Assembly (NCBI GenBank): GCA_038890815.1
Contig: JAWAFC010000007.1
Coordinates: forward strand, 8,370 to 72,369
Source of the DNA: Candidatus Micrarchaeia archaeon
GTDB lineage: Archaea; Micrarchaeota; Micrarchaeia; Burarchaeales; JACRGF01
Length of the DNA stretch: 64,000 bases
Direction of reading: 5' to 3'
Position 1 is the first letter of the stretch. The number at the start of each line of letters is the position of its first letter. The notes beneath the pieces were generated by a model, which worked only from the letters and a program-made list of their open reading frames with translations, had not been told where the DNA came from and ran no database searches. Positions 876 through 59,248 of this stretch are shown piece by piece. The translations under genes and the position numbers were made by a program.

Positions 876-898
876 AATATGCACACATTTTTAAACTT

Positions 899-1861
899 TT
901 ATAAGCCTTTTCCCCTTGGCAGGATAAGCAGCACGAGAACCTCGACCAACACGGCAAGCGCGAGCGCCCTCGGAGGCTCGGCGAAATCGGGAATCAAGCC
1001 GAGGCGCGCGGCCGCGTAGGGTAGGGCGAAGGCGAGCAGCGAGGCCGCCACCCCCCAGCCGGGCATGCTCCGCGCTTCCCTCAGGTAGAGCGCGAGCGCG
1101 GTTGCGAGCGCGAGACCGAGCAGCACAACTAGGAAAGAAAGCGTGAGCGCCCATATTATTGGGTTTGTTAAGGGAAAGTTGAGCGCCTCGAATGTATAGA
1201 ACAGCGCGGCGAGCACTATGAGCAGCACGAGCAGCGCGAAAGGCCTCCTCACCATATGCTCCAGCACATTCCTCACATCGCCCGCGCTCGGGCCTGCCGT
1301 GGGCGCGAGCACGATGAGGAAATAGAGGAGGGCGAGCGCGAGCGGATTTGTGAGGTCTGCCAGAGAGGATGAAATTGCGACTATGTTCGAGGCATGCGCG
1401 TTCGCGATGTCTTCGAATGTCATCCAGTTGAGCTCGAGCGCGTCGGGAAATGCATAGTGGAACGCGGCGAGGAAAAGCAGTGGGGGCAGGAAAGTGGGGG
1501 CAAGCGATGAGAGGGCGAGCGATAGCCAACCCAGCAGGCTCACCTCGGTCACGCTCTTCACATGCCCTCTCGTTGTGGTTATTTCCACCTCCTCAACTTT
1601 TGAGCCCGTAGCGGCGGCCACAATCGCATGACCGAACTCGTGTGTGGCGATGGCGACCCACCCTATCAGGTAGTTGGCGAGTGGGTTGCGTCTTATCTCA
1701 GGGTAAATGACCCGCCTATAGGCCCAGTAGGCCGCGGCTGTCTGGGCTATCCACACAACGAGTGCGGTCGCCAGCGCGAGCGCAAAAGGGAGGAAGAAGC
1801 CACCGAACCGATCTACCGAAGTAGCGATGTCGGAAGGAACGAGCTCGAAACCGTTCGGCAT
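899..1861 (-). CDS. M50-like membrane zinc metallopeptidase
   Basis: HEFGH (HExxH) within a hydrophobic segment, multiple TM helices, later PSAGD motif. Confidence 0.75.
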   Translation of the reverse strand: MPNGFELVPSDIATSVDRFGGFFLPFALALATALVVWIAQTAAAYWAYRRVIYPEIRRNPLANYLIGWVAIATHEFGHAIVAAATGSKVEEVEITTTRGHVKSVTEVSLLGWLSLALSSLAPTFLPPLLFLAAFHYAFPDALELNWMTFEDIANAHASNIVAISSSLADLTNPLALALLYFLIVLAPTAGPSAGDVRNVLEHMVRRPFALLVLLIVLAALFYTFEALNFPLTNPIIWALTLSFLVVLLGLALATALALYLREARSMPGWGVAASLLAFALPYAAARLGLIPDFAEPPRALALAVLVEVLVLLILPRGKGL

Positions 1862-1883
1862 GCCGACAGAATGCGCGCGGTGC

Positions 1884-23402: not shown

Positions 23403-24356
23403 ATGCAGCCTGCCTCCAGAACGCCCGCGCAGGCCCGGGCGGAAAAGAAAACCGTTCGCGTCTTCACCCCTCGCTTTTTGAGGGAAGGATTGCTCAGCGC
23501 AAAAGAGGTGGTGGAAGAGCATTTTTGCATTGAGGCTCCGTGCACTGCAAAGTCGCTCATACTTGGGAATTATGATGGCAGGAGTGCCGCGGAGTTGCAG
23601 AAAATCGCAGCCAAGCTTTCCGCGCTCGGAGCCGACATACAGCTGACGCGCAGGAAATGGCCCAGGGATTGTTTCCTCCGCCTCGACGACGCGCTCATCA
23701 TCGCGTTCGAGCCCGGCCTGTGGCAGTGCCTGGCCGCGGCCTTCTCCAAATCGCCCATGCCTATGAGCGCGGGCGAGGGGGGCGCGCTCGTTGCGGGCAG
23801 GGACTTCATTCTGGCAAGCCAGGCCCTCCCGCAGCATGCGCTTGACCAGCTACGTGCATGCTTTGGCAACAAGCGCATCCACGTGATCCCCACGCTCTAC
23901 GGCATGCCACACATCGACTGCTTCATAGGCGTCATTCCATCCCGAGGCGTTCTGCTCGCCGACCCGCAGTATGCAAAAATTCACAGAAGTGTGATAAATT
24001 TCCTGAGAGCGAAAGAAGGGCTCGAGCCCGTTGTCATACCGGAAGAGGAGGCGGGAGCAAACGCTGCCAACTTTCTTCTCGTCGAAAACGGCAGGGAGAC
24101 CGTTCTGCTCAACCACGCCCCGCGCACCGCCGAGGCTCTGGCCAAGCGTGGCGTGGATGTTGTGTTGCTCGGCGCGCCACTGGAGAAACTCAACAAGCCA
24201 TTTGAGCACGGGCTTCGGTGCGCCTCGAACGAAGCGGAAAAAGGACTTCTGGAAATTGTCGTGGCGAGGGCGAAAGAGCTCTTCGGCGAAATCGAAAAAG
24301 ACCCACGATTCAGGCGGCTTTCAGAGCTGGTCTCGGGATTTGTCACGCGGAGTTAG
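23403..24356 (+). CDS. Pentein-fold (amidinotransferase/deiminase-like) enzyme
   Basis: WPRD, GEGG, HID and GLRC in the order of the Asp/His/Cys pentein active site. Confidence 0.7.
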   Translation: MQPASRTPAQARAEKKTVRVFTPRFLREGLLSAKEVVEEHFCIEAPCTAKSLILGNYDGRSAAELQKIAAKLSALGADIQLTRRKWPRDCFLRLDDALIIAFEPGLWQCLAAAFSKSPMPMSAGEGGALVAGRDFILASQALPQHALDQLRACFGNKRIHVIPTLYGMPHIDCFIGVIPSRGVLLADPQYAKIHRSVINFLRAKEGLEPVVIPEEEAGANAANFLLVENGRETVLLNHAPRTAEALAKRGVDVVLLGAPLEKLNKPFEHGLRCASNEAEKGLLEIVVARAKELFGEIEKDPRFRRLSELVSGFVTRS

Positions 24357-24377
24357 ATTTATTATTATTCTTGCTTC

Positions 24378-25076
24378 ATGCATTTGGCAGGTGACCAGGA
24401 AATGCCTCTACCCTTCCTCTCACCCCCGCCCGAGCCCGAGCTTCCGATAACCATCGAGGAAGGGAAATACCTTGTCAGGCTCGCGCGCGATGCCATCCTG
24501 CTCTTCCTGCGCGAGAAGAAAATATTGAAGCCGGAAAACCCGCCAAAGGCAGTGCTCCAGAAGAAGGGGGTTTTTGTCGGACTCGAAAAGGCGGCCAACC
24601 GTGAGCTGCGGGGCCTCATCGGCTATCCCCAACCGCTGAAGGAACTCGCGACCGGCACGGTCGAGTGCGCCATCAGCGCGGCGGTCAGCGACCCCCGTTT
24701 TCCCCCTCTCACGGAAGCCGAGCTGGGGGATGTGACAATCGAGGTGAGCGTGCTGTCAAAGCCCGAGCCGCTACGGGCGCCCTCGTTGGCAGAGCTGCCA
24801 AACGCCATTCAGGTCGGCAGGGATGGGCTTCTCGTCGAGCACGACATTTACTCGAGCCTGCTGCTGCCGCAGGTCGCCGTTGAAAAGGGATGGAACGCAG
24901 AGGAGTTCCTGTGCAATGTGTGCGACAAGGCGGGCCTGCCCAAAGATTGCTGGAAGGAAAAGGAGATCAAGCTCTACCACTTTACCGCGCAGGTATTTCG
25001 GGAGAGCTCGCCCGGCGGCGAGGTCATTCAGCTTGAGTTTCCAAAACGTACGGATCCGATAACAACGGGATTTTAA
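24378..25076 (+). CDS. AMMECR1-domain protein
   Basis: GVFV.L, LRGLIG, DPRFPP, IEVSVLS, LLLPQVA, KAGL, FTAQVF. Confidence 0.93.
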   Translation: MHLAGDQEMPLPFLSPPPEPELPITIEEGKYLVRLARDAILLFLREKKILKPENPPKAVLQKKGVFVGLEKAANRELRGLIGYPQPLKELATGTVECAISAAVSDPRFPPLTEAELGDVTIEVSVLSKPEPLRAPSLAELPNAIQVGRDGLLVEHDIYSSLLLPQVAVEKGWNAEEFLCNVCDKAGLPKDCWKEKEIKLYHFTAQVFRESSPGGEVIQLEFPKRTDPITTGF

Positions 25077-26022
25077 ACTCCTTCACAACTCTACCTTCGT
25101 CATATAATACTATCTTTTCTGTGGTCTTATTATAGAAAAGGACCGGCTTCCAAAGAGACTTTTCAAGAAAAATCAAAATGCTGGCAAAGTTTTCATCTTT
25201 CCATGAAACTCTGAAGGTAGGAGTAATCTTCGTGAGCTCCTTGAATTTCTGGAGAGCCCCTGCTTTTTCTTCGGTAACCACCACAACCATAGCAGGCCGT
25301 AACCTCCCTTTTTCATCATAGCCATATAGGTTTTTGGCGGCCACCACTATTTCAAGGAAAGGAGTGACCACCATTGTGAAATTCGTTGGCGGGCTCTTGT
25401 AGTGGTATATCAGATCCCATTCGCGAGTAGTCATGAAAGGGATGCTCCTCACAAATCTAGCACCTTTTTTCTCTGTATCTTCCGTTACGCAGAAGCTGTC
25501 TTTTATGCGTTTTTTAGACGGGCGCGGATAGTCCACCACAGTTAAACATCTCGCTGACAGCACTGGCACAATGGCATAGAAAAACACTTCGGAAAAATGG
25601 TCGCCCACCATAAGAACTACTTTTTTCAGCTCTTCATCGCAGCCTGCGTAATTTTGACATACACGCGCTGTAACGTAGTCCAAAGATTCTTTTTTCAAAG
25701 CATCAAACAGAAGGGTAATATCTGCACTTTTCCAGAGTGGTTCGGCCTCCGTTGCCCATGAAGAAGCGACATACCCAGATGCGTCTGTGGTTGTAGATTC
25801 AACAGCAGCATATATGGTATCGCGGGCAATTCTATTCTTATTTTTGAGAAAAATATGAGTAGTATACGTTGTGGTTGTTTCCCGATTGGAGAACAACCCA
25901 AAGCAGCTTTCAACTAACGGCAGACCAAACAGAGCAACTCCTGCCCTCACCGCTTTGCGCAAAAACTCGCGTCTGGTTTGGTTTTGCTGAGGAAAAGGCC
26001 GGGCTTGTTTTGCCAGTTGCAT
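25024..26022 (-). CDS. Hypothetical putative Tat-exported lipoprotein
   Basis: TRREFL twin-arginine motif, hydrophobic stretch, then Cys (LVESC); AT-rich. Confidence 0.65.
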   Translation of the reverse strand: MQLAKQARPFPQQNQTRREFLRKAVRAGVALFGLPLVESCFGLFSNRETTTTYTTHIFLKNKNRIARDTIYAAVESTTTDASGYVASSWATEAEPLWKSADITLLFDALKKESLDYVTARVCQNYAGCDEELKKVVLMVGDHFSEVFFYAIVPVLSARCLTVVDYPRPSKKRIKDSFCVTEDTEKKGARFVRSIPFMTTREWDLIYHYKSPPTNFTMVVTPFLEIVVAAKNLYGYDEKGRLRPAMVVVVTEEKAGALQKFKELTKITPTFRVSWKDENFASILIFLEKSLWKPVLFYNKTTEKIVLYDEGRVVKEFKIPLLSDPYVLETQAE

Positions 26023-34100: not shown

Positions 34101-36522
34101 CCCGGAGCGGCGAGTTGGCAACCTGCACATCGATGCTCGCCAGCGGGCCGGGCGTTATGGTGAGCGTGGTTGCGTTCTGTGCGCTGCCGCTCGTGACATT
34201 CACCACGGCATCGGGCGGGCTGCTCCGATTTCTCGAGTAGAATGTCGCGCGCGCCTGCCCTCCGGCCGTCGTGTCCGAGGCCGTGTCGACAAAGCCGTCG
34301 GGGTGGGTGAGCTGGAAAGACACGGGCACGCCATCAGCCACCGGGAAGCCGTTGGCATCGTACACGGCCACAACGATGTCGATGGCGCTGCCATTCACAG
34401 GCACGCTGGCAGGCACCGAGACAAACTCTATGCGCGCGGGAACGCTGCTCCCGGTTACAACAACATCTGTCTGGTTGAAAACGCTCGTGGCGGTGTCATT
34501 CACGACAACCCTGTCAGTGCCCGGCGCCATCGCGCTGTAAGTTGTTGTCGGGCCGGTTGTGGGGTTTACCGTGCCCGCCCCGATCACATACCAAACGGGG
34601 TTGAAGGCGGTTATCTCGTTGCCCCAGGCATCGAACGCGCGCGCGGTGAAGACGATCTGCTGGCCCACCTCAATGGGGGCGGGATTGAACGGCTCGAGCG
34701 TGATGTAGGCTATGGGCCCGGGTGTGTAATCGACTGTTGTGGCGCTCTGCACGGCCGGGTTGTCGGTCACATAGGCGGTCACGGTCTCGGTGCCGGTCTG
34801 GTTGGCCGAGTAGAATGTCACGCTCGCCATTCCATTTACTGTCAGCGCGCTCGAGGCATTTGGCGGGTTGGTGAGCGTGAAGCTGATGTTCGTGCCGTCG
34901 GCCACTGCATTGCCATAGGCATCGCGCACCTCCGCAGTTACCGAGAAGGGAACTCCTCCAACCTGCACGCTCGGAGGCACAACGCTCAGCGTGATGCTCG
35001 CCGCCGCGCCTGGATTGACCTGAATGTTCACTATATTGGAATCGACGCCGCTCTCGGTCGCATAGACCGTCCCGCTTCCGACCGTCGTCGCCGTGAATGT
35101 CGTGCTCGCGCCCGTTGCCGGATTCACCGTGCCGATGCCGCCCGTCACAACCCAGGTGGGATTCACCGCCACCGCGTTCCCGTAAGCATCGGTGCCCGTA
35201 GCGACAAAGTCGATCGTCTCGCCCACCGTAACGCTCTGGTCCGCCGAGGGCGTGATGTAGAGGCTCGCCAGCGGGCCCGCAATGTAATCTATTGTGGCGA
35301 AATCCTGCACGCTCGGATTGCTCGTGACGTAGGCGCGAATGCTCGCGCTGCCAGTCGAGGTGGCCGCGGTGAAAGTGACGCTCGCCACACCGTTTGTGGT
35401 GGCCGCGCTCTGCGAGCCCGCGGGATTGGTGAGCTCGAAAGTCACGCCCGTGCCGTCAGCCACCGGATTGCCGTATGCATCGGTGAGCGTGGCGTTCACG
35501 ACAAATTGGGTGCCCACGGTAGCGCTCTGTGGGGCGGAGAGCACGAGGCTGGCCGGTGCGCCGGGCACGACAGTGATTGGCGTGGCGGGCGAGGTTATGC
35601 TTCCCTGCGAGGCACTGATCGTCCCGCTTCCGACCGTCGTCGCCGTGAATGTCGTGCTCGCGCCCGTTGCCGGATTCACCGTGCCGATGCCGCCCGTCAC
35701 GCTCCAGGTTGGATTGATCGGAACGACGTTGCCCGCGGCATCGTATCCCGTCGCGGTGAAAGCGAGCGTCTCCCCGGCCGCCACGGTCTGGGCAGCTGAG
35801 GGACTTATAATAATATAGGCAAGCTGGCCTGCAGTGACCGTTATAGTTGCAGTGGTCTGAACCGACCTGCCGTTGGCTGTGGCGGTTGCCGTCACCCTAT
35901 AAGTTCCGGGCGTTGCGGGCGCGGTGTAAGTGACGCTCCTTCCAGTTGAGGGACTTACACTCCCGCCATCCGCGCTCCACGAGATCTGCGCATTCACAGC
36001 GGTTCCTGTCTCATCGTATGCGGTCGCTGTCAGCGAAACTGTTCCGCCCACCTGCACAGTAGCCGAAGGCGGGCTGATGGCAACGCTGGTGAGCGTGTGC
36101 TGACTCCACGCGTATGGGTTGGCATTCGCATTGCAGTAATTGAGCGAGCCCTGGCTTTCTCTCACACCATCGCGATAGGGAGCCCCGCCTATCCAGCACG
36201 CTGGACAGCCCGCTCCGCCCATAATTGTGAATGACCTGGTTATAGTCGTGCCGGACTTCTTTGCCGTATAGGGCCCCACGCCCTTGCCCGCCATGTTAAG
36301 ATAACAATAGCCGTTGCTGCCTATGGTGCACTGCACCCCTGTGAACGAGCCCGCTGCCGTGTAAACCTTAATCAACGAGCCGGCGCTCTCGCTCACAATG
36401 ACCGGGCAGGTATTCGGATAAGTCGGGTTGCTCGCGCTGGGGAAGAAATCAAGCGCGCTGGCCGTCGCTGCCAAAAACAGCAGGCCAAGCCCGACCAATG
36501 CACCATCAATCCTTCCGCCCAT
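31171..36522 (-). CDS. Very large secreted protein (1783 aa) with invasin/intimin-like Ig and carboxypeptidase-regulatory-like repeats
   Basis: Signal peptide; repeated DAYGN(P/A)V.DG..V.F and WSVTGGIGT units; T/A/V/G-rich; no C-terminal TM. Confidence 0.85.
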   Translation of the reverse strand: MGGRIDGALVGLGLLFLAATASALDFFPSASNPTYPNTCPVIVSESAGSLIKVYTAAGSFTGVQCTIGSNGYCYLNMAGKGVGPYTAKKSGTTITRSFTIMGGAGCPACWIGGAPYRDGVRESQGSLNYCNANANPYAWSQHTLTSVAISPPSATVQVGGTVSLTATAYDETGTAVNAQISWSADGGSVSPSTGRSVTYTAPATPGTYRVTATATANGRSVQTTATITVTAGQLAYIIISPSAAQTVAAGETLAFTATGYDAAGNVVPINPTWSVTGGIGTVNPATGASTTFTATTVGSGTISASQGSITSPATPITVVPGAPASLVLSAPQSATVGTQFVVNATLTDAYGNPVADGTGVTFELTNPAGSQSAATTNGVASVTFTAATSTGSASIRAYVTSNPSVQDFATIDYIAGPLASLYITPSADQSVTVGETIDFVATGTDAYGNAVAVNPTWVVTGGIGTVNPATGASTTFTATTVGSGTVYATESGVDSNIVNIQVNPGAAASITLSVVPPSVQVGGVPFSVTAEVRDAYGNAVADGTNISFTLTNPPNASSALTVNGMASVTFYSANQTGTETVTAYVTDNPAVQSATTVDYTPGPIAYITLEPFNPAPIEVGQQIVFTARAFDAWGNEITAFNPVWYVIGAGTVNPTTGPTTTYSAMAPGTDRVVVNDTATSVFNQTDVVVTGSSVPARIEFVSVPASVPVNGSAIDIVVAVYDANGFPVADGVPVSFQLTHPDGFVDTASDTTAGGQARATFYSRNRSSPPDAVVNVTSGSAQNATTLTITPGPLASIDVQVANSPLRAGDSTQVTASGFDAWGNPVATNPSWSVTGNAGTFNPLTGPTTTFTAQVVGSWIITANDSGIVGSAPIEITAGAPYTIIITAPSLTTPDTTVPVTAEVFDQFGNAVPDAVVVFNLTESPLPEGNLSNGTDTGSVVTALTDVAGIAGITLWTSPTPGNHTINASVDGISNSTRVETLATVGNIDGYVLSTTGLPVAGALVVVDGTSFNDTTDGTGYYFIGGLAEGTYSLTATRAGFEPGTASGVVVVAGSTTQANITMQQHGGIIGYVTDAGNGSAIAGANVSAWQGLALIQETLTDSFGFYFLSDLVAGIYNLTVTAQNYLSASALNVVVQPGANTTQNFSLVYNDTTPPVVQLVPDTPADGANVTGTIVLNATASDPNLDTIELLANGAVVASCTGTTVCTAIVNTAAYPDGLGTLALSARANDTFGNIGVSGTRTLTVDNIPPAVAFVEPRTPANNSNVSGVIYIDFTASDEPGITSAQLWINDALNATITYGLQPSVTDSFMINTTYFGDGPLSFQVVANGIFTTNGTEVRNVNVNTSAPPVFTYVVVEPAYAEMRAGESIDFNATALDQYMQPIGGVTFTWSASGGSIDAQGNFTAAVVGLYTITATGDNGTTQINGTATANVTPAAAANLTVIAAPPVVAPGENSTITATLTDAFGNAIAGATIDFNLTLTPLPAGSLNASSATTNASGQAQVLLTTSTNVSGGVHTVQARYGSLNASVNVTATGTLGNLEGYVRSNDGTPINGASVVIEGTGYGATTNASGYYIITGVAPSNSYAVTASAAGYLGQTVTGVSVQAGQTTWLNFTLTQLGTISGTVTESDGTPIAGVNVSVDGTGRWALTDGSGNYAIQVEPGTYSLTATKAGYATQRRTGVIVTAGGVSDADMIMYRLGGFIGIVIDGITGAPIPGTLVEAIQGGIIVGSDTTNAAGHYYIPNLPAGLYDVRATTPIGQNQTSFNEMIVAGQNTTVNFAFI
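35068..35700. repeat. Perfect 81-bp direct repeat (35068-35148 and 35620-35700)
   Basis: Identical cgtcccgcttcc...gcccgtcac copies 552 bp apart, encoding VTGGIGTVNPATGASTTFTATTVGSGT. Confidence 0.92.
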
Positions 36523-36530
36523 TTACACCC

Positions 36531-38684
36531 TCAGAACTTTCCCTCAATAGTGATGAAGAAGGTCTTCAGCGGGTGCTCGGCTCCGTTTTCCACATTGAAT
36601 TTTTCGTTTATTCCTTCATAACTCCCGCCTATGCGGAATTCGCCTTTCTTAATCGGAATCAACACCAACCCTTTCAATCGCCAGCCGTAGTAATTTCCAT
36701 TTTGGATTATACTGACGGGATCATCTTCGAATCTAAACTCCTGTTCTATCCTGCCTTGCAGATACTCGCCCTCTACCACAATATACTTGCTTATCCCAAG
36801 CTCGCCTCCAACGCTGAAGCCCTCTCTCACTTTTTTATTCAGGCCATAGCCAATGCGGTATCTTTCATAAGAGCCCTTCGGTCCAAGCCAGAAAGCCGGT
36901 TTTCCGCCGATCTTCCCAATCCCAAACAGCCCAAAACTCAGCCCCGAGTTGCCACCCTCTTTGGTGAGCTCATTGCCAAAAATTGGGTCTGGCCTGGAAA
37001 TTTTGGAGTAGTCCACATTTAGGTTCGGGTTCCCGAGCAAGGAGAATTTTCCTAGATAGAGCCATTTATCAGTGTGAAAGCGAACATCGACAGCGCCGCA
37101 GTCCTCCTTATCAGTTGAGTATTGTCCGGAGAGCTCGGAAAATTCTTCTCCTTTCAGCGTGAAGCGCACCCATCCATCAACTGAATTATCCTTAACTGGC
37201 GCGGTAGTTCCACTGATGTCCTGGCGGACATTTGCATCCATGTCCTTATAGGTCACCCATGCAGCAAGTTCAGTAATCAGCCCGGGAACAGCAGCAATAA
37301 TTGTGACTCCAGCCCCAAACCTGTTCCTGGCATCCTCAGCAAGCTTTGTCAGGTCCTCCCCGAGATAAACATGCACGGAATTGACCCTGTGGTCATAGAC
37401 AAGAATTCCACCGAGCGAGACTTTGCTATCCTTCGATTTCAATTGGTAAATCGGGAAGTGGATTTCAACAGGCGTGTCGCTCGAGAAAAAGCGCATCGGC
37501 GCTGGCCCTTCGCCCAGCACGGCGCTTCCAGGGGTCCACTCAACCCATTCTCCGTGACCCGCATAAATCCGCCAAGGCTGAATTGAAGGCACAGGAAGCA
37601 ATTGTTCCTGTTCCTGAGCTGCTTTAACTCTGTTCGCTATATCCTCAAGCGTTTTTTTCTCCTCACCGGACAGAGCTCCTTTCTTGTCACGCAATTCCTC
37701 AAGCGTTTTCCTGTCTCTCTCAAAATCCTTCTTTTTCTCTTCCGGAAGTTTGTCAATCTCTTCAATTATCTGTTCCGCCTGGATTATCTGGCCAACCCTC
37801 TTACTTTCCTCACCCGAAATTTCCTCTTTAGGTGCGGGCTTTCCTTTTGCCTCTCCTGTTTTTTTCCCAGCAACCTCCTTCTGTTGAGGTGCAGGTGTTT
37901 CCCTTTTCCCCTGTTCACCAGTCGGTTTTCCTTTCTCTTTCGTTTCTTTTCCAGTAATCTTTTTACCAGTCGGTTTTCCTTTCTCTTCCTTCGTTTCTTT
38001 TCCAGTTGTTTCAGGAGTTTTTTGTGTTTCAGAAGTTTTGGATTTCTCGGCTGGCTCTTTGCCAAGCAGGCTTTTGACTTTTTCATATGCTTTTTTGTAC
38101 CAGGGCTTGTTAGCCTCCTCAATCTCGTTTCTTAATTCCTCGATCTCCTTGCGAATTTTTTCTTGTTCTTTGGCGCTCGCAGTTTTCTTTAGCAGTGCTT
38201 CAAGCTCGGCCACTCTTTTTTCAAGCTGCGTTACTCTCTCATCAAGTTGATCAACACGCTGTTCAAGTTTGGGCTGCTTGGCATACGTAGGTGCCACCGT
38301 TGTCAAGCCAAGAATTCCGGCAAGCACATAGGGGAGCACACCACGCCCAAGAGTTGCGCCAAGAGTTGCGCCGAGTGTTGCGAGGACGCCGGGTTTGTGC
38401 TCCTCAGGGCGCTCACCACTCACAATGCGCTCATCGGATGCCCGCTCATAAACAGGTATTATTTGAAAGTTCTTGAGCAGTCTCTTGGAAATATAAACAT
38501 GGCCATCTCCGATTGCGATAACACCTAGCTGCTTCCAGCGCTCAAACAGGTCATAGAGGGGCGTTTGTTTTTGAAAAGTTTGCATTTGCCTGCACAACGA
38601 GTTCTGATAGGGTCGGAATAGATGGTCGCCTCTGAGGTATGGCGGCAGATTTGTATATCCACTTCTCACGGCATCTCCTCCCAC
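36531..38684 (-). CDS. Hypothetical protein: hydrophobic segment, coiled coil, K/E/T/G low-complexity region, beta-rich C-terminus
   Basis: 717-aa ORF, AT-richer. Start uncertain (GTG 38684 or ATG 38585). Internal 12-bp repeats (38347-38382) and ~48-bp-period repeats (37917-38006). Confidence 0.8.
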   Translation of the reverse strand: MGGDAVRSGYTNLPPYLRGDHLFRPYQNSLCRQMQTFQKQTPLYDLFERWKQLGVIAIGDGHVYISKRLLKNFQIIPVYERASDERIVSGERPEEHKPGVLATLGATLGATLGRGVLPYVLAGILGLTTVAPTYAKQPKLEQRVDQLDERVTQLEKRVAELEALLKKTASAKEQEKIRKEIEELRNEIEEANKPWYKKAYEKVKSLLGKEPAEKSKTSETQKTPETTGKETKEEKGKPTGKKITGKETKEKGKPTGEQGKRETPAPQQKEVAGKKTGEAKGKPAPKEEISGEESKRVGQIIQAEQIIEEIDKLPEEKKKDFERDRKTLEELRDKKGALSGEEKKTLEDIANRVKAAQEQEQLLPVPSIQPWRIYAGHGEWVEWTPGSAVLGEGPAPMRFFSSDTPVEIHFPIYQLKSKDSKVSLGGILVYDHRVNSVHVYLGEDLTKLAEDARNRFGAGVTIIAAVPGLITELAAWVTYKDMDANVRQDISGTTAPVKDNSVDGWVRFTLKGEEFSELSGQYSTDKEDCGAVDVRFHTDKWLYLGKFSLLGNPNLNVDYSKISRPDPIFGNELTKEGGNSGLSFGLFGIGKIGGKPAFWLGPKGSYERYRIGYGLNKKVREGFSVGGELGISKYIVVEGEYLQGRIEQEFRFEDDPVSIIQNGNYYGWRLKGLVLIPIKKGEFRIGGSYEGINEKFNVENGAEHPLKTFFITIEGKF

Positions 38685-38861
38685 GAGAACGAGTTGTTTA
38701 TTACATACTTTTTAGTATTTAAAGCTATTCCCTGGCAAAATAAGGGCTTCTTTGCTTGCTGTTAAATATTTTCAAGAAAAAGAACATTCCTTCGTTTAAA
38801 AATACTTTTCGTTAGGAAATTTCAGCACACAATTAAATATCTTGCGGAGATAAAACATTTT

Positions 38862-39170
38862 ATGGCTGAATTCTCCCCTCTTAAGCGCCTTGCACGCTCG
38901 CTGACGACCGAGAACCAGTGGCTTTATGTGCTTTCGCTATTAAACCACTCAAACATCTATGCCTATGCCATGCGAGGGGAGATTGAAAAGGAGTTCGGCT
39001 GGAAACCCAGTCTCATAACCTGCTACCTTATCCTGTACAAGCTTGAGAAAGAGGGCTTTATCACCGGAAAGTATGAAGGGAGGCGCAAGTACTACTCAAT
39101 CACCGATAAAGGAAAGAAAGCGCTTGCGAGCGCAAAGCGCTATCTTCAGGCTCTTGCGGAGAACCTGTAG
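38862..39170 (+). CDS. PadR-family transcriptional regulator
   Basis: YVLSLL...YAY...Y.ILYKLEKEGFI...RRKYYSITDKGK. Confidence 0.9.
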   Translation: MAEFSPLKRLARSLTTENQWLYVLSLLNHSNIYAYAMRGEIEKEFGWKPSLITCYLILYKLEKEGFITGKYEGRRKYYSITDKGKKALASAKRYLQALAENL

Positions 39171-39457
39171 CCTTCCCGCTCCAACAACTTTTTCTTCTTG
39201 GCACTTCCGCCCTTTCCGCTGTATCCTCCCGCGCTTCCATCACTCCTGATAACTCTGTGGCATGGGATGAGCAATGGGAAGGGGTTCTTAGCGAGCGCAT
39301 TCCCCACCGCCCTTGCTGCTTTTGGCCTTCCAACCCTTTTTGCGATCTCCGCGTAGCTTGCAGTTTTTCCTTTCGGGATTTTCGCCGTTTCGAGTAGCAC
39401 GCGCGTCTCAAATGCTGTGAGTCCGCACCCCGCCAATTTTTTTCTTAACAATCTCAA
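39146..39457 (-). CDS. ogt: Methylated-DNA--protein-cysteine methyltransferase (C-terminal domain only)
   Basis: IPKGKTASY, ARAVGNAL, NP, IPCHRV. Start uncertain (TTG inside the upstream gene). Confidence 0.92.
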   Translation of the reverse strand: MRLLRKKLAGCGLTAFETRVLLETAKIPKGKTASYAEIAKRVGRPKAARAVGNALAKNPFPLLIPCHRVIRSDGSAGGYSGKGGSAKKKKLLEREGYRFSARA

Positions 39458-40373
39458 CGCACCGCGCGAGCGCTGCCTCGAGCTTCCCTTTCTCAATGCC
39501 GTTCGCCCCCGCGGCGTTCGCGTGTCCGCCGCCGCTCCCGCCAAATTCTCTGCCCACCTCAGCCATAACCTCTGCCAGATTAACTTCGACCCTGTGCGCG
39601 CTTTTCTGTCTCGCCGAAATTCGGCCGCCTCCCTCGGCCTCGCACCCCACGAAAGCGAAATCGGCCCCGAGCTCCACGAGCGCGGTGGCAGCGCCGGCTT
39701 CAAAGGCTCCCACCACGGAGGTTACAGCGAGCACGTCGCCTTGTTCGCCCAACCTCTCTATCTTCGCCCTCTGCGCCGCTTTAAGCATCGCGAGCCTCTG
39801 CGACAGGTCGGCCGGCACATCGAGCATGGCGAGCGCTTGGGGGTATGCCAGGCCACTTCTCTCAAGCAGCTCGCCAGCATATTTCAATGTGCGTGCGCTC
39901 GCGCTTTTGAAACCCGCCGAATCTGCCAGAATGCCCGCGAGCAACAGGGTGGAGGTTTGTCTATCAAGCCTTTGTTTCCTCAGCGCGTGGTATATCAGCT
40001 CGCAAGTGGCATTGAAGGAATTGTCGCAGAACCACCGCCTCGCGCGCACCGAGTCCTTATGCCGAGAGTGGTGATCGATGACTGCCGTGAAAACCGCCGA
40101 GCGGAATTTCTGGGCGAGCATGCTTTTTGCATTGGCATCGACTGCAATGACTGCATCGTACTCGGGCGGAAGCTCGTCAACAGCTAGGCCAAGAGTGGTC
40201 AGCAAGTGCCTCGCGGGCGAGGTCAGGGTATCCGATGCCACCGCGCGCGCTCCATCCCCAAGAAATCTTTTGAGCGCGAGCGCAGCAGCGACCGCATCCA
40301 CATCGGCGAGGCTGTGCATGAGGAGGACAACTTTCTTCTTCCTCAGGCTTTTCAGGAAGGTGAGCAGGTTCAA
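39408..40373 (-). CDS. DHH/DHHA1-family phosphoesterase
   Basis: H..ADVDA, VIDHH, GILADS, GGGHANAAG. Confidence 0.93.
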   Translation of the reverse strand: MNLLTFLKSLRKKKVVLLMHSLADVDAVAAALALKRFLGDGARAVASDTLTSPARHLLTTLGLAVDELPPEYDAVIAVDANAKSMLAQKFRSAVFTAVIDHHSRHKDSVRARRWFCDNSFNATCELIYHALRKQRLDRQTSTLLLAGILADSAGFKSASARTLKYAGELLERSGLAYPQALAMLDVPADLSQRLAMLKAAQRAKIERLGEQGDVLAVTSVVGAFEAGAATALVELGADFAFVGCEAEGGGRISARQKSAHRVEVNLAEVMAEVGREFGGSGGGHANAAGANGIEKGKLEAALARCVEIVKKKIGGVRTHSI

Positions 40374-51743: not shown

Positions 51744-51869
51744 GCCTCCGTAGCTCAGCGGTCAACCTTTTTCCCTCACCCGCTCCAAAAGCGTTGGCGG
51801 AAAAGTGGTTAGCTAGAGAGCGACCGCCTCGTAAGCGGTAGGTCGAGGGTTCAAATCCCTCCGGGGGCT
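51744..51869 (+). tRNA. tRNA-Thr(CGT) with 54-nt D-loop intron (51763-51816)
   Basis: GCCTCCG/CGGGGGC acceptor stem, ACCGC-CT-CGT-AA-GCGGT, GAGGG-TTCAAAT-CCCTC. Intron removal gives the D-arm GCTC-AGCGGTA-GAGC. Confidence 0.95.
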
Positions 51870-55070: not shown

Positions 55071-57941
55071 CTACAGCGCCCTGTCTTTCGTGTAGTACCA
55101 CTGCACTTGTCCTTTCGCAGCCTCTTCATCGATATTCTCTTCTTCGATTATTGAGCGCGTGCGCGCTGGCGGGACAACCTCAACCAACATCCACTCCCCG
55201 TTTTGTTTCCTGAAACTCCAGTATTCCTCCCAGGGGGTGACGTACTCGTCTTTCCTCGTAATTTTTTCCCCTTTGTACTCTATTCTCTGCGCATGCGCGC
55301 TTATGCGCGCGGTGAACTCATCCCTATTCTTGTCGTTGTAGTTCTTGACGAGGACGATGTCGACTTTCCTCACGCACATATTCCTGTACTCCACCTTTCT
55401 GTTCTCCTTCTTCATTGCATCAATCTGGCTACGGAAATGCGAAGCGGCTTCGGGCAGTAGGAAAGGCTCGACGGCAGTCAGGTCCCTTTTTTCGAATGCT
55501 GTGAGCACGCGCACGAAAATTTCTCTCGCGCGCATTTTCATGAAATCCTCGTCCCAGCTCTTGTCCGTAGAGGAAAGAAAGTTCAGCATGCGGTGAACCC
55601 TGTCCGCCTTTTTTCTGAGCGCCTCATCGAGCCAAGGCGCTTTTTCAATGGGGGGTGCCGCGAGCGCACCGTAAATGTTTTTCAGCTGCCAGGGCGTCAG
55701 CTCCTCCACAAAATTTTCTTCAGCGAGCGCATCCGACTCGCGCGTCTGATTTATTTCCCGCAAAAGCCAGTTGTTTCCCTGCCTCTGGAATACCCAGAAT
55801 TCTTGGAAAACCGCTGGCTCGGAGTCGCCCCTCAAGAACCTTCCATCCCTGTCATCCACGTAGTAATCCCTCGCGCTCGCTTCCACAAGGACGGTGAACT
55901 CTTGCTGGTCTTTCTTTGCATAGTGCCTGAGGTGCACGATTTCCAGCTTCCTCAACTGGAGGTCATCCAGCTTGTTTATCTCGTGGTTCCTCTTAAGCGA
56001 TTCAAGCTGGCTGACGTGCTGCGCATAGAGGTTAGGCATGAGCAACGGCTGCATGGGGGCGTACTCGCGCGATTGCCAGCACTCTTGAAGTTTGAAAAAA
56101 GTAGTTCTCGCGATCCTCTTCAGCTCATCGGGATCCCACCGCGGGTCTATGCTTTTGAGGTAAGCCAAGAGCTTTGCGGTTTTGGCTGCCTTTGCATCCA
56201 CTTGTGAAGAGGGATAACAATAATCGAGGTCTGCGCTTAGGCGGCTTTTCCGGCGTATTATCCAGAAAAGGCCACACGTCACTACTCCGAACATCAGCAG
56301 CGAAATGGCCATCCCACAAAGTTGCTCCTCCAGCGAAGGGGGCACGACGATTTTCACCATTCCGATTCCGGATACATTCATCTCGCTGTAGCCCAGGCAC
56401 TCCTCGCGCGTCGCGCATTCGAACCGAAGCTCCCTCGATATTGCAAAATTGGTTAGGTTTGCACAGCGCCATGCCTCCTGTGTTGCCTTCACGCAGTTTT
56501 CAAGCGTGCGCGCGCTGTTTATGTTGGTTTTCAGGAAATACACATAGATGCACTGGGTTCCGTTCGCGTAAGAGCCGTTGGCCAACCTCAGGCGCGTGGG
56601 CAGGCCGCACATCGTCGCATGCGTGTAAGGCGTGCTTCCGCTGCCTCCTCCGCCTCCCTTGTTGTGCACAACAAAACCGTTTGCAATAAACGTGAACGGC
56701 TCCCCAATCTCCAAATTATACACACGCTCCTCCCCAAGATAGGTTGCGGAAACTATCCTCTCCTCCCGCAATTCTCCGTTCTCGCCAATCACCATCACCA
56801 CATCGCCGGCAGAAAGCTCAGACGCCTCCTTAAAACTCCCGCCCGGAGTGAGGAAAGGATGCTCGGCTGTCGTGTTTACCGCTCTTCTCTCCGTGCGGAG
56901 CTGGAGCACGCGCGTTCTGGTCGTGAACACGCCGCGCACAACCGCCTTTTTCACAGAGCCGTCAGGCGCCACCGCGGTCACCATGTTCCCCGCCTTTACC
57001 GCCTCAATGTGCCGCTCGCCCTCAGGCGTAGCTATCCGTGTCCCTGCTGCAAAACACCCGCCGCCCTTGTTGTGCACCGCGATGAAGTTTGCGAAATACG
57101 TGTTCGGCCATTCCGTCCTCGGGTTGTACGTTGTTACGTTCGCAAGCACCGTCTCCTTTGAAACAACCCTCTCCGGAGAGAGGCCGCTTCCATTGAAAAC
57201 GAATATTCTGTCGCCGGGCTCCAGCCGCTCGGCAGTCACGAACACGCCGTCGCCCAAGTAAAACGGGTGCTCTGCAGTGACGTTCACCTCATAACTCTCC
57301 GTCCTGATTACGTAATACTCACGCGCGCTCGCCGTATACACTTCGATCACGCTCGCGTTGATCACCTCGCCCTCGTAAGTGAAAGCCTTCAGCACGTCAC
57401 CCGGCTTCACCTCGCTTATCCTCTTCCACGAGCCGTCAGCTGTCAGCACGAGCGTGTCCGGCAGGAAAGAGCCCTTGTTGTGTGCGATGATGGAATTCGC
57501 GAGGAAAATGCCCCTGCTGTCCACAAGCAGGTTGTACGCTTCAGTCTCCTTTTTGTGTGGAACAATGGAAACAACGCGGTCAAGCTTGGCAGTGTTGTTG
57601 GAATAGACCACCACTGTGTCGCCTGCCGCGAGCTTTGCCGCCTCCTTAAACCTGCCATCCCCTATGTACAAGAGGTGCTCTCCGGTCACATTCACCGATG
57701 TGGTCGCAGTGGTTATCTCGTAGTATTTTGATGCGTTAGTGGCATACAGCACAACGACGCGCGCGATCCCATCCGGCGTGACAACCTCTTCTCCAGCAGA
57801 AACCGATTTGATGGGCTTTTCCCCGCTTGTTGTCAGCACGAGCGTGTCCGGCAGGAAGCACCCGCCGCCTCCTCTTGCCGCCGCCAGGGACGAGAGTGCG
57901 AGGATGAGAAAAAGGCGTTGCAAAACGCCGGGCCGGAGCAT
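55071..57941 (-). CDS. Secreted/membrane protein: signal peptide + 3 tandem Hint domains + TM + 2 Tim44-like domains
   Basis: Hint domains at aa 28-155, 158-291 and 296-427: C/S-F..(D/G)T starts, TxEH block B, YN block F, HN ends. TM GMAISLLMFGVVTCGLFWII. Two D..WD...E(F/Y)W.F.(R/K)....W.L domains. Confidence 0.9.
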   Translation of the reverse strand: MLRPGVLQRLFLILALSSLAAARGGGGCFLPDTLVLTTSGEKPIKSVSAGEEVVTPDGIARVVVLYATNASKYYEITTATTSVNVTGEHLLYIGDGRFKEAAKLAAGDTVVVYSNNTAKLDRVVSIVPHKKETEAYNLLVDSRGIFLANSIIAHNKGSFLPDTLVLTADGSWKRISEVKPGDVLKAFTYEGEVINASVIEVYTASAREYYVIRTESYEVNVTAEHPFYLGDGVFVTAERLEPGDRIFVFNGSGLSPERVVSKETVLANVTTYNPRTEWPNTYFANFIAVHNKGGGCFAAGTRIATPEGERHIEAVKAGNMVTAVAPDGSVKKAVVRGVFTTRTRVLQLRTERRAVNTTAEHPFLTPGGSFKEASELSAGDVVMVIGENGELREERIVSATYLGEERVYNLEIGEPFTFIANGFVVHNKGGGGGSGSTPYTHATMCGLPTRLRLANGSYANGTQCIYVYFLKTNINSARTLENCVKATQEAWRCANLTNFAISRELRFECATREECLGYSEMNVSGIGMVKIVVPPSLEEQLCGMAISLLMFGVVTCGLFWIIRRKSRLSADLDYCYPSSQVDAKAAKTAKLLAYLKSIDPRWDPDELKRIARTTFFKLQECWQSREYAPMQPLLMPNLYAQHVSQLESLKRNHEINKLDDLQLRKLEIVHLRHYAKKDQQEFTVLVEASARDYYVDDRDGRFLRGDSEPAVFQEFWVFQRQGNNWLLREINQTRESDALAEENFVEELTPWQLKNIYGALAAPPIEKAPWLDEALRKKADRVHRMLNFLSSTDKSWDEDFMKMRAREIFVRVLTAFEKRDLTAVEPFLLPEAASHFRSQIDAMKKENRKVEYRNMCVRKVDIVLVKNYNDKNRDEFTARISAHAQRIEYKGEKITRKDEYVTPWEEYWSFRKQNGEWMLVEVVPPARTRSIIEEENIDEEAAKGQVQWYYTKDRAL

Positions 57942-57953
57942 TCGTCTGCCCCT

Positions 57954-58220
57954 TCAGAATATTCCGGATATTATCGCAGCTGCGATGATTATGCTTATCC
58001 CCAATATGACTGCCTGCGTTATCTGCCCCACATAACTTGCCACTGCAAGGTTTCCCCGCGCGAGCTCTCTCTCGTCGTTTATTCTCGGGGTGAGCCTGTC
58101 CACTATCTTCGGCACGATGAAGGTCGCAATGCCTATCAAAAAGATTCCCAGAATTCCTCCCAGCAGTGTGTACAGCACTGCAAGGGTCATGTTTTCGGTC
58201 ACTGTAGCGCTCAACACCAT
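57954..58220 (-). CDS. DUF350-like small membrane protein
   Basis: Two TM helices with DRLTP.I...EL..GNLAVA...GISIIIAAAI. Confidence 0.85.
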   Translation of the reverse strand: MVLSATVTENMTLAVLYTLLGGILGIFLIGIATFIVPKIVDRLTPRINDERELARGNLAVASYVGQITQAVILGISIIIAAAIISGIF

Positions 58221-58261
58221 CAGACCACCTTAAATTGCGCTTTGTGTCGCGCTTTAAATAT

Positions 58262-59248
58262 TTACTCCTCGGCCTCCGGCTTGAGGCTCTGCCACCAACG
58301 CAGCATCCATATTGCGGGAATCACCGTGGTGAGGAATATCACCAGCACGATGATGTGCCATGAGAAAACAGAAAAGCCTGCGAGCGTCGCGAGCGCCTTG
58401 TCGCTTTGGATTGGGAAGTACGGGATGCCGAAAATGGTGGCCACAGTATTCGGCACCACGCTGGCGGTCGCGAGTATGGTGAGCAGGATGGTTATGGCGG
58501 TCAGTTTTTTTATCTTCTCGTTTATCCTGTTGCTTATCGCTGTGTGGTACACGCTGAGGCTGTCCGTCAGCACATCCCGGTAGGTCGCGTTCAAGTCGAT
58601 GAGGTAAATCAACGCATGATTGATATCATCAAGCGCATGTCCGAGCATTTCATCCACCTTCAGGAACTTCACCCTGTGCACCTTCAGATCGAAAGCGAAT
58701 TCCCTTGTGTGCCAGAAGACCTTGTTCGCGAGAAGGAGGGCGCGCTTCAGGTCGAGCAGTGTCACGATCGCGTCGCTGCCCACCTCCTTGATCACTCTCT
58801 CCTCGATGACCTCTACCTCATCCTCCAGCCTGTCCACAAGGTACTCGAATTTCTTTGTGAGCTCCTGAAGGATGTAGACGATGATAATCTCTTTTTTCAC
58901 AGCCCGCATGCGCTTTTCCATGGCAGTCTTTATGAAAGAGGCGAGGATCTCGTCTGCGCCAACTGTTACGAGCATGCGTTCGTTGAAGAAAGCGTACATG
59001 CGCCGCTTCTTTATTCCCTCTTTGTAATCGAGCCCGATGAAGACCACGCCCGTCCAATCCTCAAGCTCCTCATATGAAGGGTATTCGGCCTCCTCAAGCC
59101 TCTCGAAGGCATCGAGCGGGATGCCGAAAGAAGCCAATCCCTCCCGCGCCTCTTCCTCTGAAAAATCGGCCCAAACCGCCCTGCCCTTACATTCTTTTGC
59201 GCTCGGCTGGGGGACTTCGGCGCATTTCCCCAAGTCAAGCACGCGCAT
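58262..59248 (-). CDS. corA: CorA/ZntB-family divalent cation transporter
   Basis: Helical stalk, SNRINEKIKKLT, two C-terminal TMs; GIP in place of GMN. Confidence 0.85.
   Translation of the reverse strand: MRVLDLGKCAEVPQPSAKECKGRAVWADFSEEEAREGLASFGIPLDAFERLEEAEYPSYEELEDWTGVVFIGLDYKEGIKKRRMYAFFNERMLVTVGADEILASFIKTAMEKRMRAVKKEIIIVYILQELTKKFEYLVDRLEDEVEVIEERVIKEVGSDAIVTLLDLKRALLLANKVFWHTREFAFDLKVHRVKFLKVDEMLGHALDDINHALIYLIDLNATYRDVLTDSLSVYHTAISNRINEKIKKLTAITILLTILATASVVPNTVATIFGIPYFPIQSDKALATLAGFSVFSWHIIVLVIFLTTVIPAIWMLRWWQSLKPEAEE

Follow-up and report, generated by a model that had tools for sequence, protein, structure and literature searches.

Tandem intein-like Hint domains on a Tim44-like membrane protein of a Micrarchaeia archaeon and its bacterial relatives: candidates for self-processing outside the cytoplasm

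Why should a membrane protein carry a string of intein-like domains, each with its catalytic residues in place, between its signal peptide and its membrane anchor? This question is posed by a gene on a 64,000-nucleotide (nt) stretch of Candidatus Micrarchaeia archaeon DNA (assembly GCA_038890815.1, contig JAWAFC010000007.1, positions 8,370 to 72,369; hereafter the window), whose product combines three Hint domains, a single transmembrane (TM) helix and two Tim44-like domains. According to the comparisons presented here, this Hint-Tim44 protein belongs to a family of Bacteria and Archaea in which each Hint unit is preceded by glycine and followed by lysine, and in which the processing of the units by cleavage, ligation or transfer has to be weighed on the grounds of their junctions, their relatives and their gene neighbourhood.

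Layout of the Hint-Tim44 protein

The gene and its product were divided into the following features (positions are those of the window; aa, amino acids; pLDDT, predicted local distance difference test score; the Hint types A to C are the positional types described below for the family):

55071-57941, minus strand: whole gene, 956 codons plus stop, an uninterrupted open reading frame
57876-57941, minus strand: Sec-type signal peptide, aa 1-22, ending with AAA before R23; model helix 3-15
57861-57875, minus strand: RGGGG, aa 23-27, the entire N-extein of Hint 1; R23 to G27 at least 90% conserved
57477-57860, minus strand: Hint 1 (type A), aa 28-155, C28...TGEH...HN155, 13.7 kDa
57471-57476, minus strand: linker K-G, aa 156-157 (+1 Lys of Hint 1, −1 Gly of Hint 2)
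57069-57470, minus strand: Hint 2 (type B), aa 158-291, S158...TAEH...HN291, 15.0 kDa
57057-57068, minus strand: linker K-G-G-G, aa 292-295
56661-57056, minus strand: Hint 3 (type C), aa 296-427, C296...TAEH...HN427, 14.3 kDa
56628-56660, minus strand: linker K-GGGGG-SGSTP after the last Hint, aa 428-438; pLDDT <50 at 430-439
56346-56627, minus strand: Cys-rich alpha/beta domain, aa 439-532, with six invariant Cys
56256-56324, minus strand: single TM helix, aa 540-562 (hydrophobic span 540-564), followed by RRKSR on the cytoplasmic side; model helix 537-565
56214-56231, minus strand: juxtamembrane motif DLDYCY, aa 571-576, family consensus ENLDYxY
55737-56210, minus strand: Tim44-like domain 1, aa 578-735 (Pfam, model, fold match to yeast Tim44 3qk9_B)
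55167-55631, minus strand: Tim44-like domain 2, aa 771-925 (Pfam, model)
55074-55166, minus strand: C-terminal tail, aa 926-956, with invariant W948, Y949, Y950 and R954

The preliminary description of this locus, made from the letters alone, had proposed the succession signal peptide, RGGGG, Hint 1, KG, Hint 2, KGGG, Hint 3, KGGGGGSGS, Cys-rich domain, TM helix and two Tim44-like domains; direct reading together with Pfam and NCBIfam searches returned exactly these boundaries, and all three Hints were confirmed to keep the nucleophile, the TxEH motif and the terminal HN, to lack an endonuclease and to be followed by Lys. In Pfam the 956-aa protein matched PT-HINT in three stretches, further Hint families, and Tim44 (E = 3.7e-35) in two stretches; in NCBIfam the intein_Nterm model matched three times and the intein C-terminal splicing model once. 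The Hint units, all of which contain TxEH, comprise 128-134 aa and consequently leave no room for an endonuclease. In the full-length AlphaFold2 (AF2) model, computed from a 72-row alignment (mean pLDDT 85, predicted template modelling score (pTM) 0.38), confident domains are joined by floppy linkers (pLDDT <50 at 290-295, 430-439, 564-571 and 759-771), the Hints being modelled as compact beads on a string. In the juxtamembrane motif L572 and D573 are invariant and Y576 is at least 90% conserved.

The topology signals, namely the signal peptide, the RRKSR sequence behind the TM helix and the archaeal sequons, point to a type I membrane protein with the Hints outside and the Tim44-like domains inside the cytoplasm. 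Cleavage of the signal peptide is predicted from the presence of A, S or G at positions −3/−1 in the 16 members whose N-termini were compared, 15/16 of which read xxA/G-RGGGGC. In the window protein, 12/13 N-x-S/T sequons precede the TM helix, and the share of Asn residues found in sequons is 12/29 in the ectodomain versus 1/16 in the cytoplasmic part (Fisher p = 0.017); pooled over eight archaeal members, the values are 62/231 versus 9/128 (p = 3e-6). This excess, which was not seen in the bacterial members, fits N-glycosylation of the archaeal ectodomain. The earlier suggestion that the sequons support an extracellular location is borne out in the archaeal members.

Is the triplication real? 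The three Hints are mutually 37-40% identical as protein, and their DNA shares one exact stretch of 27 nt plus a few 72-75% matches of at most 51 nt, which offers an assembler no repeat to merge or multiply. The same layout is present in L001, a 16.7-kb contig of another metagenome-assembled genome (MAG), with 18 synonymous and 10 non-synonymous codon differences. In run X2, which comes from a second sample of one study and bears the label hot springs metagenome, three overlapping contig pieces extend over the whole stretch; they are colinear with it and show 36 substitutions, no indels and no joints, and the piece 56938-58297 spans both Hint-Hint junctions. Run X1, maybe the source sample, was excluded as independent support. 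Because the Hints have diverged, the DNA repeats are short, L001 has the same layout and the X2 contigs are colinear, the triplication is real, and both a recent duplication and the assembly artefact against which the preliminary description had cautioned are ruled out. The exact 27-nt direct repeat (window 57441-57467 and 57831-57857) encodes FLPDTLVLT at the starts of Hint 2 and Hint 1, respectively; in units otherwise ~40% identical it suggests a short gene conversion, and it fits such an event that unit 1 begins with CFLP, like unit 2, in archaeal members and with C[LIV]xE in bacterial ones.

Conservation, distribution and gene partners of the family

The unit junctions were counted in two independent censuses, one of 417 full Hint units in 120 proteins (census 1) and one of 192 units in 78 genome loci (census 2). 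In census 1, G−1, HN and K+1 were each present in 417/417 units, the first residue being Cys in 415 and Ser in 2; in census 2, C1, HN, K+1 and G+2 were each found in 192/192 units and G−1 in 191/192, the exception being an ambiguous base. Conservation of the +1 Lys in homologues, on which the preliminary description had staked its proposal, is accordingly complete in both sets. The units are joined throughout by Lys and one to five Gly (with KGGGSG as the one exception), and the linker between units 1 and 2 is KG in 103/104 tabulated cases. RGGGG stands before the first Hint in 64/79 loci, with a signal-peptidase-like x-x-A/G ahead of it; the last unit is followed by K-G-G, a Gly/Ser/Arg/His-rich stretch, the TM helix and ENLDYxY.

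Within the units, an alignment of 48 of them revealed an invariant block B His with the neighbouring Thr, Glu and Pro conserved at 90% or more. No Cys beyond the nucleophile is present in 335/417 units, and the Cys frequency amounts to 0.20% in the Hint bodies versus 0.68% in the cytoplasmic part, a depletion as expected for a thiol that must stay free outside the cytoplasm. The Ser nucleophile of Hint 2 (codon 158, window 57468-57470) occurs, among the unit-2 copies compared, only in the window protein, its 99% twin and the protein P0010, the unit-2 nucleophile being Cys in 117/119 copies of census 1; Ser158 would imply an N-O instead of an N-S acyl shift in this lineage. As a side observation, the two Hints of P0010 are followed by several TM segments.

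Three positional types of unit can be distinguished: type A comprises unit 1, type B unit 2 (starting with CFLPD) and type C units 3 and 4 (starting with CFPAGT). Unit 2 of the window protein scores ~125 bits against unit 2 of other proteins versus ~50-60 bits against positions 1, 3 and 4, and its unit 3 scores ~91-103 bits against other units 3 and 4; judged by first residues, the five-unit protein reads A-B-C-B-C and the six-unit protein A-B-A-B-A-B. Over 100 proteins the mean pairwise identity is 0.49 for type A, 0.62 for type B and 0.48 for type C, in comparison to 0.675 and 0.657 for the two Tim44 domains. By these sequence measures every Hint unit is under purifying selection as a positional orthologue. 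Type B is nearly as constrained as the Tim44 domains. Self-excision alone would hardly demand this much, which points to an additional function of the Hints, be they released or resident.

The cytoplasmic part consists of Tim44-like domains, which are of NTF2 fold and membrane-associating. The Pfam model PF04280 matched in two stretches with 121.6 bits (cut-off 29.6), and the Foldseek matches of the C-terminal domains included the yeast Tim44 C-terminal domain with detergent (3qk9_B, E = 1.4e-5) and the mitoribosomal chain 9hch_d, which we take to be mL45; the NCBIfam models for TimA and the Tim44-TimA adaptor (NF033778, NF033779) remained below their cut-offs (71.5 versus 80 and 20.8 versus 200). 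The PF04280 match and the yeast Tim44 and mitoribosomal fold matches are shared with Tim44 and bacterial Tim44-like proteins; in contrast to these, the domain is duplicated here, placed C-terminal to a TM helix with ENLDYxY and joined to a Hint array. The Cys-rich domain is found in the archaeal members, and the 10 bacterial members compared have a Gly/Ser-rich linker in its place. Its residues Cys 445, 464, 483, 493, 509 and 515 are all invariant in eight sequences, and its model reaches pLDDT 90 and pTM 0.79; Foldseek detected no fold relative in the PDB at E ≤ 0.001 (best E 0.25), and comparison with Atlas structures gave TM-scores <0.5 throughout and no usable feature match.

A word-indexed search yielded 558 relatives at E ≤ 1e-3 among 8000 scored candidates. 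In the 120 listed among these 558, Hint models matched in all and PF04280 in all but one partial protein; hidden Markov models (HMMs) built from the window protein recognised two Tim44-like stretches in 120/121 proteins. The number of Hints per protein in this set of 121 is three in 46 and four in 71, and one, two, five and six in 1 protein each, the 120-protein list favouring long proteins; among 79 genes in genome loci, some of them cut by contig ends or frameshifts, one Hint is present in 7, two in 22, three in 40 and four in 10. The survey of Hint copy number and HN-K in Hint+Tim44 proteins that the preliminary description had recommended thus gives 1-6 copies with an invariant HN-K. In the databases the relatives are named 'Hint domain-containing', 'polymorphic toxin-type HINT domain-containing' or 'TIM44-like domain-containing'.

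At least 246 species genomes encode a relative, as found in a scan of one genome per species. The best 80 of these 246 genomes comprise 75 bacterial and 5 archaeal ones (four Micrarchaeia, one 'uncultured archaeon'); the bacterial MAGs among them belong to Thermodesulfobacteriota (Syntrophales, Desulfarculales, Smithellaceae), Verrucomicrobiota, Planctomycetota, Lentisphaerota and Kiritimatiellota, with single MAGs of Gammaproteobacteria, Terriglobia, Anaerolineales and Auribacterota. In the phylum of the window organism the gene is present in 4/301 sampled genomes, all from its own order; the window genome itself, a small one (1.16 Mb in 17 contigs, 95.8% complete), has one copy. The preliminary description had known of no archaeal system with this architecture: indeed no published description was found, but with 75/80 of the best loci being bacterial the system is not specific to archaea. 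A quick maximum-likelihood tree of the C-terminal part (74 rows, unrooted; a length/X filter had dropped 6/79 locus genes, including the archaeal L007 and L058) united the four archaeal rows in one clade (SH-aLRT 100) beside two Planctomycetota rows (97). As far as an unrooted tree can indicate direction, one inter-domain transfer, most simply from bacteria to this archaeal order, would account for this pattern.

Is there a parent form that lacks the Hints? The C-terminal part is matched by 160 shorter proteins, and of the 16 whose N-termini were inspected, most start within the TM helix or further into the cytoplasmic part, while in one the start coincides with the last HNK. Because of such starts these proteins are read as truncated gene calls, and a Hint-less parent form was mostly rejected. 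Nevertheless, a genuine Hint-less form may exist in P0172 (Planctomycetes, 462 aa, on a 27.9-kb contig), which has a multi-TM N-terminus and no Hints, and is 44% identical to the part comprising the TM helix and both Tim44 domains. Other N-termini were seen in P0223 and P0234. At L075 (5899-6996 and 6993-8213) and in several short proteins, the gene is split into a Hint part and a Tim44 part or starts inside the TM helix; the split genes could be due to frameshifts, to assembly breaks or to real pseudogenes.

Directly upstream of the Hint-Tim44 gene lies a small membrane protein gene:

57954-58220, minus strand: DUF350 partner, an 88-aa protein with two TM helices; its stop lies 12 nt before the Hint-Tim44 start

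Neither this gene nor the LemA gene described below had been mentioned in the preliminary description. The match of this partner to Pfam DUF350 is marginal (E = 4.1e-6, 27.3 bits versus a cut-off of 26). With a family-specific HMM, the DUF350 gene was found directly upstream on the same strand in 68/73 loci with at least 500 nt before the first Hint. One gene beyond it, LemA (Pfam E = 6e-58 in the one tested) is present in 37/66 loci with enough flank, and both genes in 35/66; no other neighbour is common to more than 7 loci, two antisense open-reading-frame artefacts aside. In the archaeal loci DUF350 is present and an adjacent LemA absent, the single LemA of the window genome (locus L083) being located on another contig (G000:C13:18514-18960, minus strand). 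The DUF350 partners are well conserved and carry the invariant loop T-P-x-I-D-E-x-K-E-I-x-R-G-N-x-A-V-x-x-Y between their two helices. A complex prediction for DUF350 with the TM-Tim44 part scored 0.00, which speaks neither for nor against binding. According to the available sections of PMC11237479, DUF350 (YjfL) recurs in PspA envelope-stress operons with polyamine-metabolism genes; the partner shares the Pfam DUF350 match with these proteins and differs in forming a two-TM subfamily with its own loop, paired with Hint-Tim44 and often LemA, and neither PspA nor polyamine genes occur among the conserved neighbours of the Hint-Tim44 loci. PADLOC matched neither the Hint-Tim44 and DUF350 proteins nor a LemA; a defence system is in consequence unsupported.

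Class of the Hint units and their proposed processing

The familiar Hint domains are the inteins, the Hedgehog processing domains and the bacterial intein-like (BIL) domains that are scattered among variable bacterial proteins. Among solved structures, the unit profile matched best the C. thermocellum BIL domain 2LWY (E = 3e-24, 89 bits); the best true intein reached 3.8e-15, Tetrahymena BIL2 (6y75) 6e-15 and Hedgehog 1e-8. Foldseek searches with the Hint models (probability 1.00) gave TM-scores by target of 0.83-0.89 for the best mini-inteins and 0.83 for 2lwy, with BIL2 and Hedgehog also among the matches. By sequence and models the domains are members of the Hint superfamily of BIL type, as indicated by the fold, the C/S nucleophile, T-x-x-H, HN, the missing +1 Cys/Ser/Thr and 2lwy as the closest relative.

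The Hedgehog C-terminal domain (1AT0) shares with them the Hint fold and, as predicted for the present family, the action outside the cytoplasm on a Gly-Cys bond, and it passes its upstream part to a nucleophile other than the +1 residue; it is not known to perform terminal His-Asn cleavage and needs a sterol-recognition region, whereas HN is invariant and such a region is absent in the present family. Class 1 mini-inteins (Npu DnaB, Mtu RecA, gp41-1) correspond in fold (TM-score by target 0.87-0.89 for several) and in the residues of blocks A, B and G; here, however, the +1 residue is Lys, no essential host protein is split, and the units are tandem, exported and orthologous, with no homing. 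A canonical intein was rejected on account of the +1 Lys, the exteins RGGGG, KG and KGGG, the units too short for an endonuclease and their retention as positional orthologues. The closest class, the A-type BIL domains (2LWY), has in common the N-terminal Cys, T-x-x-H, HN, the lack of a +1 Cys/Ser/Thr and of an endonuclease, and the occurrence in non-housekeeping secreted or surface proteins; the present family differs by 1-6 head-to-tail units on K-G(n) only, by the invariant G−1, K+1 and G+2, and by its units, which are not inserted in hypervariable proteins but form positional orthologues on a protein with one TM helix and two Tim44 domains. Tandem units or the +1 Lys have possibly been noted already in the original BIL papers, which lie outside this comparison. 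With the BUBL loci of ciliates (BIL2, PDB 6Y75/6TMM), in which the C-terminus of the preceding part becomes a thioester that is captured by a Lys epsilon-amine without ATP, the BIL-type Hint is shared; in contrast to them, there are no ubiquitin-like domains, a Gly linker or a neighbouring Hint would be the piece transferred, the Lys stands in cis at +1, and the setting is extracytoplasmic and prokaryotic. Indeed, no ubiquitin-like match was found in Pfam for the window protein, and its linkers have only 2-4 residues.

What BIL domains do is documented in part by the available sections of three papers. In the absence of a +1 nucleophile, mostly N- and C-cleaved products are formed, and a single mutation converts BIL domains to efficient splicers (PMC7664689); according to a title cited there (ref. 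16), a BIL domain ligates proteins even where nucleophilic side chains are missing. For A-type BILs, PMC7765530 states that Asn serves for cleavage and that the flanks cannot be ligated, and Tetrahymena BIL2 forms an isopeptide between a Lys epsilon-NH2 and a C-terminus, by which the upstream ubiquitin-like domain is joined to other proteins without ATP (PMC8616854, section 2.4). The assertion of the preliminary description that cleavage at both ends and ligation by aminolysis are established for such Hints finds backing in PMC7664689 and PMC8616854, within the same sections.

The tandem cassette is not confined to Tim44-like proteins. The Hint profile detected 75,161 proteins at E ≤ 1e-3 in 1.84 billion representatives, 620 of them at E ≤ 1e-30; among the best 150 matches, Tim44-like domains are present in 55 and absent from 95, many of the latter being family fragments. 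The head-to-tail succession HN-K-G(n)-(S)-C also occurs, with 2-5 units, in other proteins: three units in P0353 (3411 aa), which has a phage minor-tail domain of tape-measure type; five in P0319 (4119 aa) and in P0320 (1757 aa); four in the Cys-rich-repeat protein P0300; two C-terminal units in P0356 (TadE-like) and P0339 (Big_9/cadherin-like); and tandem Hints in the Ser-rich proteins P0289, P0305 and P0382, which end in a C-terminal TM helix. In these non-Tim44 proteins S, T, A, P or W can occupy the −1 position and the +1 residue is still often Lys, the profile, which includes this Lys, introducing a small bias toward K+1. P0383 and P0365 consist of a signal peptide, ARGG, two units, a TM helix and a tail, which in P0383 resembles the first Tim44 domain (hhalign probability 93%, E = 3.5e-7).

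How, then, might the Hint-Tim44 protein be processed? In the reading that we prefer, and to which we give an even chance, the exported Hints process themselves, the Lys captures the Gly (thio)ester, and a short tail is left on a Tim44 protein working with DUF350. The Sec signal peptide would export the N-terminal half, and each Hint would fold and be catalytically active after export; its first residue would attack the preceding Gly carbonyl to give a (thio)ester (by an N-S shift, or an N-O shift in Hint 2), and the terminal Asn would cyclise and cut the bond before Lys. Since neither G−1 nor K+1 ever changes although the spacers differ in their count of Gly, the simplest chemistry is one in which the amine of the +1 Lys captures the Gly (thio)ester; two routes to this are conceivable. 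The epsilon-amine, placed where inteins have their +1 nucleophile, could attack; as an epsilon-amide cannot rearrange, the chain would continue through the Lys side chain and a free alpha-amine would be left. Alternatively, the alpha-amine freed by Asn cyclisation might react, as reported for BIL ligation. The expected products would be free periplasmic Hints of 13.7, 15.0 and 14.3 kDa, the 105.4-kDa precursor becoming a 62.4-kDa membrane protein with the mature tail RGGGG-K-G-K-GGG-K-GGGGG..., possibly linked via Lys side chains. A rebuilt Gly-rich leader and an isopeptide or tagging chemistry coupled to the Tim44 module, the two outcomes put forward in the preliminary description, are both candidates here. 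The mature Tim44 protein and its two-TM DUF350 partner would most likely serve membrane or envelope homeostasis. Excision may be an irreversible maturation or a sensing step needing a free thiol outside the cell, and a step of this kind would be oxidation-sensitive; most of the named bacterial lineages of the family are presumably anaerobes. Since the units are conserved by position, it may be that the Hints have a role once freed, or that it matters when they are lost.

Several points weigh against this reading. BIL domains mainly yield cleaved and not ligated products (PMC7664689), and those of A-type cannot ligate (PMC7765530), as far as the sections referred to above go; the resulting tail could be encoded directly, so that ligation alone gives no reason for 3-6 Hints; the Gly number in the linkers varies; K+1 also stands beside −1 S, T, A, P or W, for which reason the Lys may aid Asn cyclisation and not act as acceptor; and the proposed envelope role is read from the gene neighbourhood and from literature on DUF350 and Tim44-like domains. 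The same facts lend some weight to plain cleavage, a possible but doubtful solution in which the Hints would be self-removing pro-domains acting by (thio)ester hydrolysis and Asn cyclisation with nothing ligated: the RGGGG, KG and KGGG peptides and the free Hints would be released, the mature protein would start at K428 (61.6 kDa), and Lys and Gly would favour fast cleavage. Both the predominance of N- and C-cleaved products among BIL domains together with the inability of A-type BILs to ligate (PMC7664689, PMC7765530) and the K+1 of related Hints with a non-Gly −1 residue agree with it, and tandem arrays are sensible if the aim is to separate or release parts; however, the strict invariance of G−1 and K+1 appears to exceed known cleavage needs, the N-terminal RGGGG of 64/79 loci would be thrown away, and the same partly available literature reports BIL ligation without a nucleophilic side chain (the title cited in PMC7664689) and the BIL2 isopeptide (PMC8616854). 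If the acceptor came from outside, a polyamine, a lipid head group or the Lys of an envelope protein would attack the Gly (thio)ester, and the array would serve multi-shot, ATP-independent tagging or cross-linking, comparable to Hedgehog cholesterol transfer or to the ubiquitin-like conjugation of BUBL. The joining of an upstream domain to Lys of other proteins by BIL2 (PMC8616854), the recurrence of the DUF350 family beside polyamine-metabolism genes (PMC11237479, both in the sections named), several units per protein as fitting for single-turnover reagents, and the K-G(n) cassette of giant surface proteins and a phage tape-measure-type protein are in line with this; yet nothing but RGGGG, or an upstream Hint bearing a KG tail, would be transferred, no polyamine gene is among the conserved neighbours, and the invariant in-cis Lys would be needless, all of which makes an outside acceptor improbable.

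Two further explanations were considered. A role without processing, in which the Hints would build a stable beta-rich stalk or a binding module outside the cell and their catalytic-looking residues would be relics, is very unlikely: Hint folds can be structural, and the AF2 model resembles such a stalk in its beads on a string, but relic residues would not have been kept unchanged in different phyla and in both Bacteria and Archaea, the linkers consist of only K and Gly, and Cys other than the nucleophile is depleted. Hardly credible is a set of selfish mini-inteins or a release module of polymorphic toxins (PT-HINT), to which the Pfam PT-HINT and intein models and the name 'polymorphic toxin-type HINT domain-containing protein' of some relatives might point. 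Neither a +1 Cys/Ser/Thr nor an endonuclease is present, the units do not interrupt a conserved host protein, the exteins being Gly linkers, and they behave as positional orthologues under purifying selection; a polymorphic toxin with PT-HINT was rejected because a TM helix and two cytoplasmic Tim44 domains and no C-terminal toxin follow the Hints, PADLOC gave no match, and the neighbours are DUF350 and LemA and not an immunity gene. The gene downstream, too, is no immunity gene: it encodes a convergent PALP-family enzyme, read from its sequence as threonine synthase.

A bolder version of Lys capture, which we consider rather unlikely, regards the tandem BIL array as a ribosomally encoded, ATP-independent extracytoplasmic acyl-transfer device in which the epsilon-amine of the +1 Lys would capture the activated Gly, either in cis ('iso-splicing') or in trans. 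If true in cis, the mature backbone would run through Lys side chains; if true in trans, Gly-Lys cross-links would result, or tags on envelope proteins, lipids or polyamines handled by the DUF350 partner. Such a device would parallel ubiquitin-like conjugation, but in prokaryotes, outside the cell and with no E1-E3 enzymes, and giant surface and phage tape-measure proteins would use the K-G(n)-linked cassette to the same end.

Further observations and significance

Elsewhere in the window, at positions 51810-51861 on the plus strand, an Rfam tRNA match was noted (34.2 bits versus a gathering score of 29) that covers model positions 8-63 only and has the anticodon loop CUCGUAA (anticodon CGU, Thr). 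ARAGORN called no tRNA anywhere in the window; judged from its sequence, the match may be an unusual or split tRNA gene. The G+C content is ~0.51 at window 1-2000, 24001-26000 and 36001-40000 versus 0.57-0.63 in most of the window.

In the literature, no description joining Tim44 with Hint domains or inteins was found, supplements and the original BIL papers being beyond the search, and likewise nothing on a DUF350-LemA-Tim44 module; in the titles and opening parts of abstracts on bacterial intein-like domains, no tandem arrays were evident. In comparison to known BIL-type Hints, the new elements are the tandem array, the extracytoplasmic site predicted for it, the invariant Gly/Lys flanks, the fusion to Tim44 and the fixed membrane partner.

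The cassette could serve as a self-contained tool for protein ligation or tagging. For the biology of these organisms, the finding means that a family with never-varying flanks of its predicted cut sites spans two domains of life and raises the question whether prokaryotes form Gly-to-Lys (iso)peptides by Hint chemistry outside the cytoplasm. The occurrence of the wider K-G(n) cassette in tape-measure and surface proteins suggests that this chemistry may be more general, and the family offers a first way to approach the function of bacterial Tim44-like proteins and of a DUF350 subfamily.

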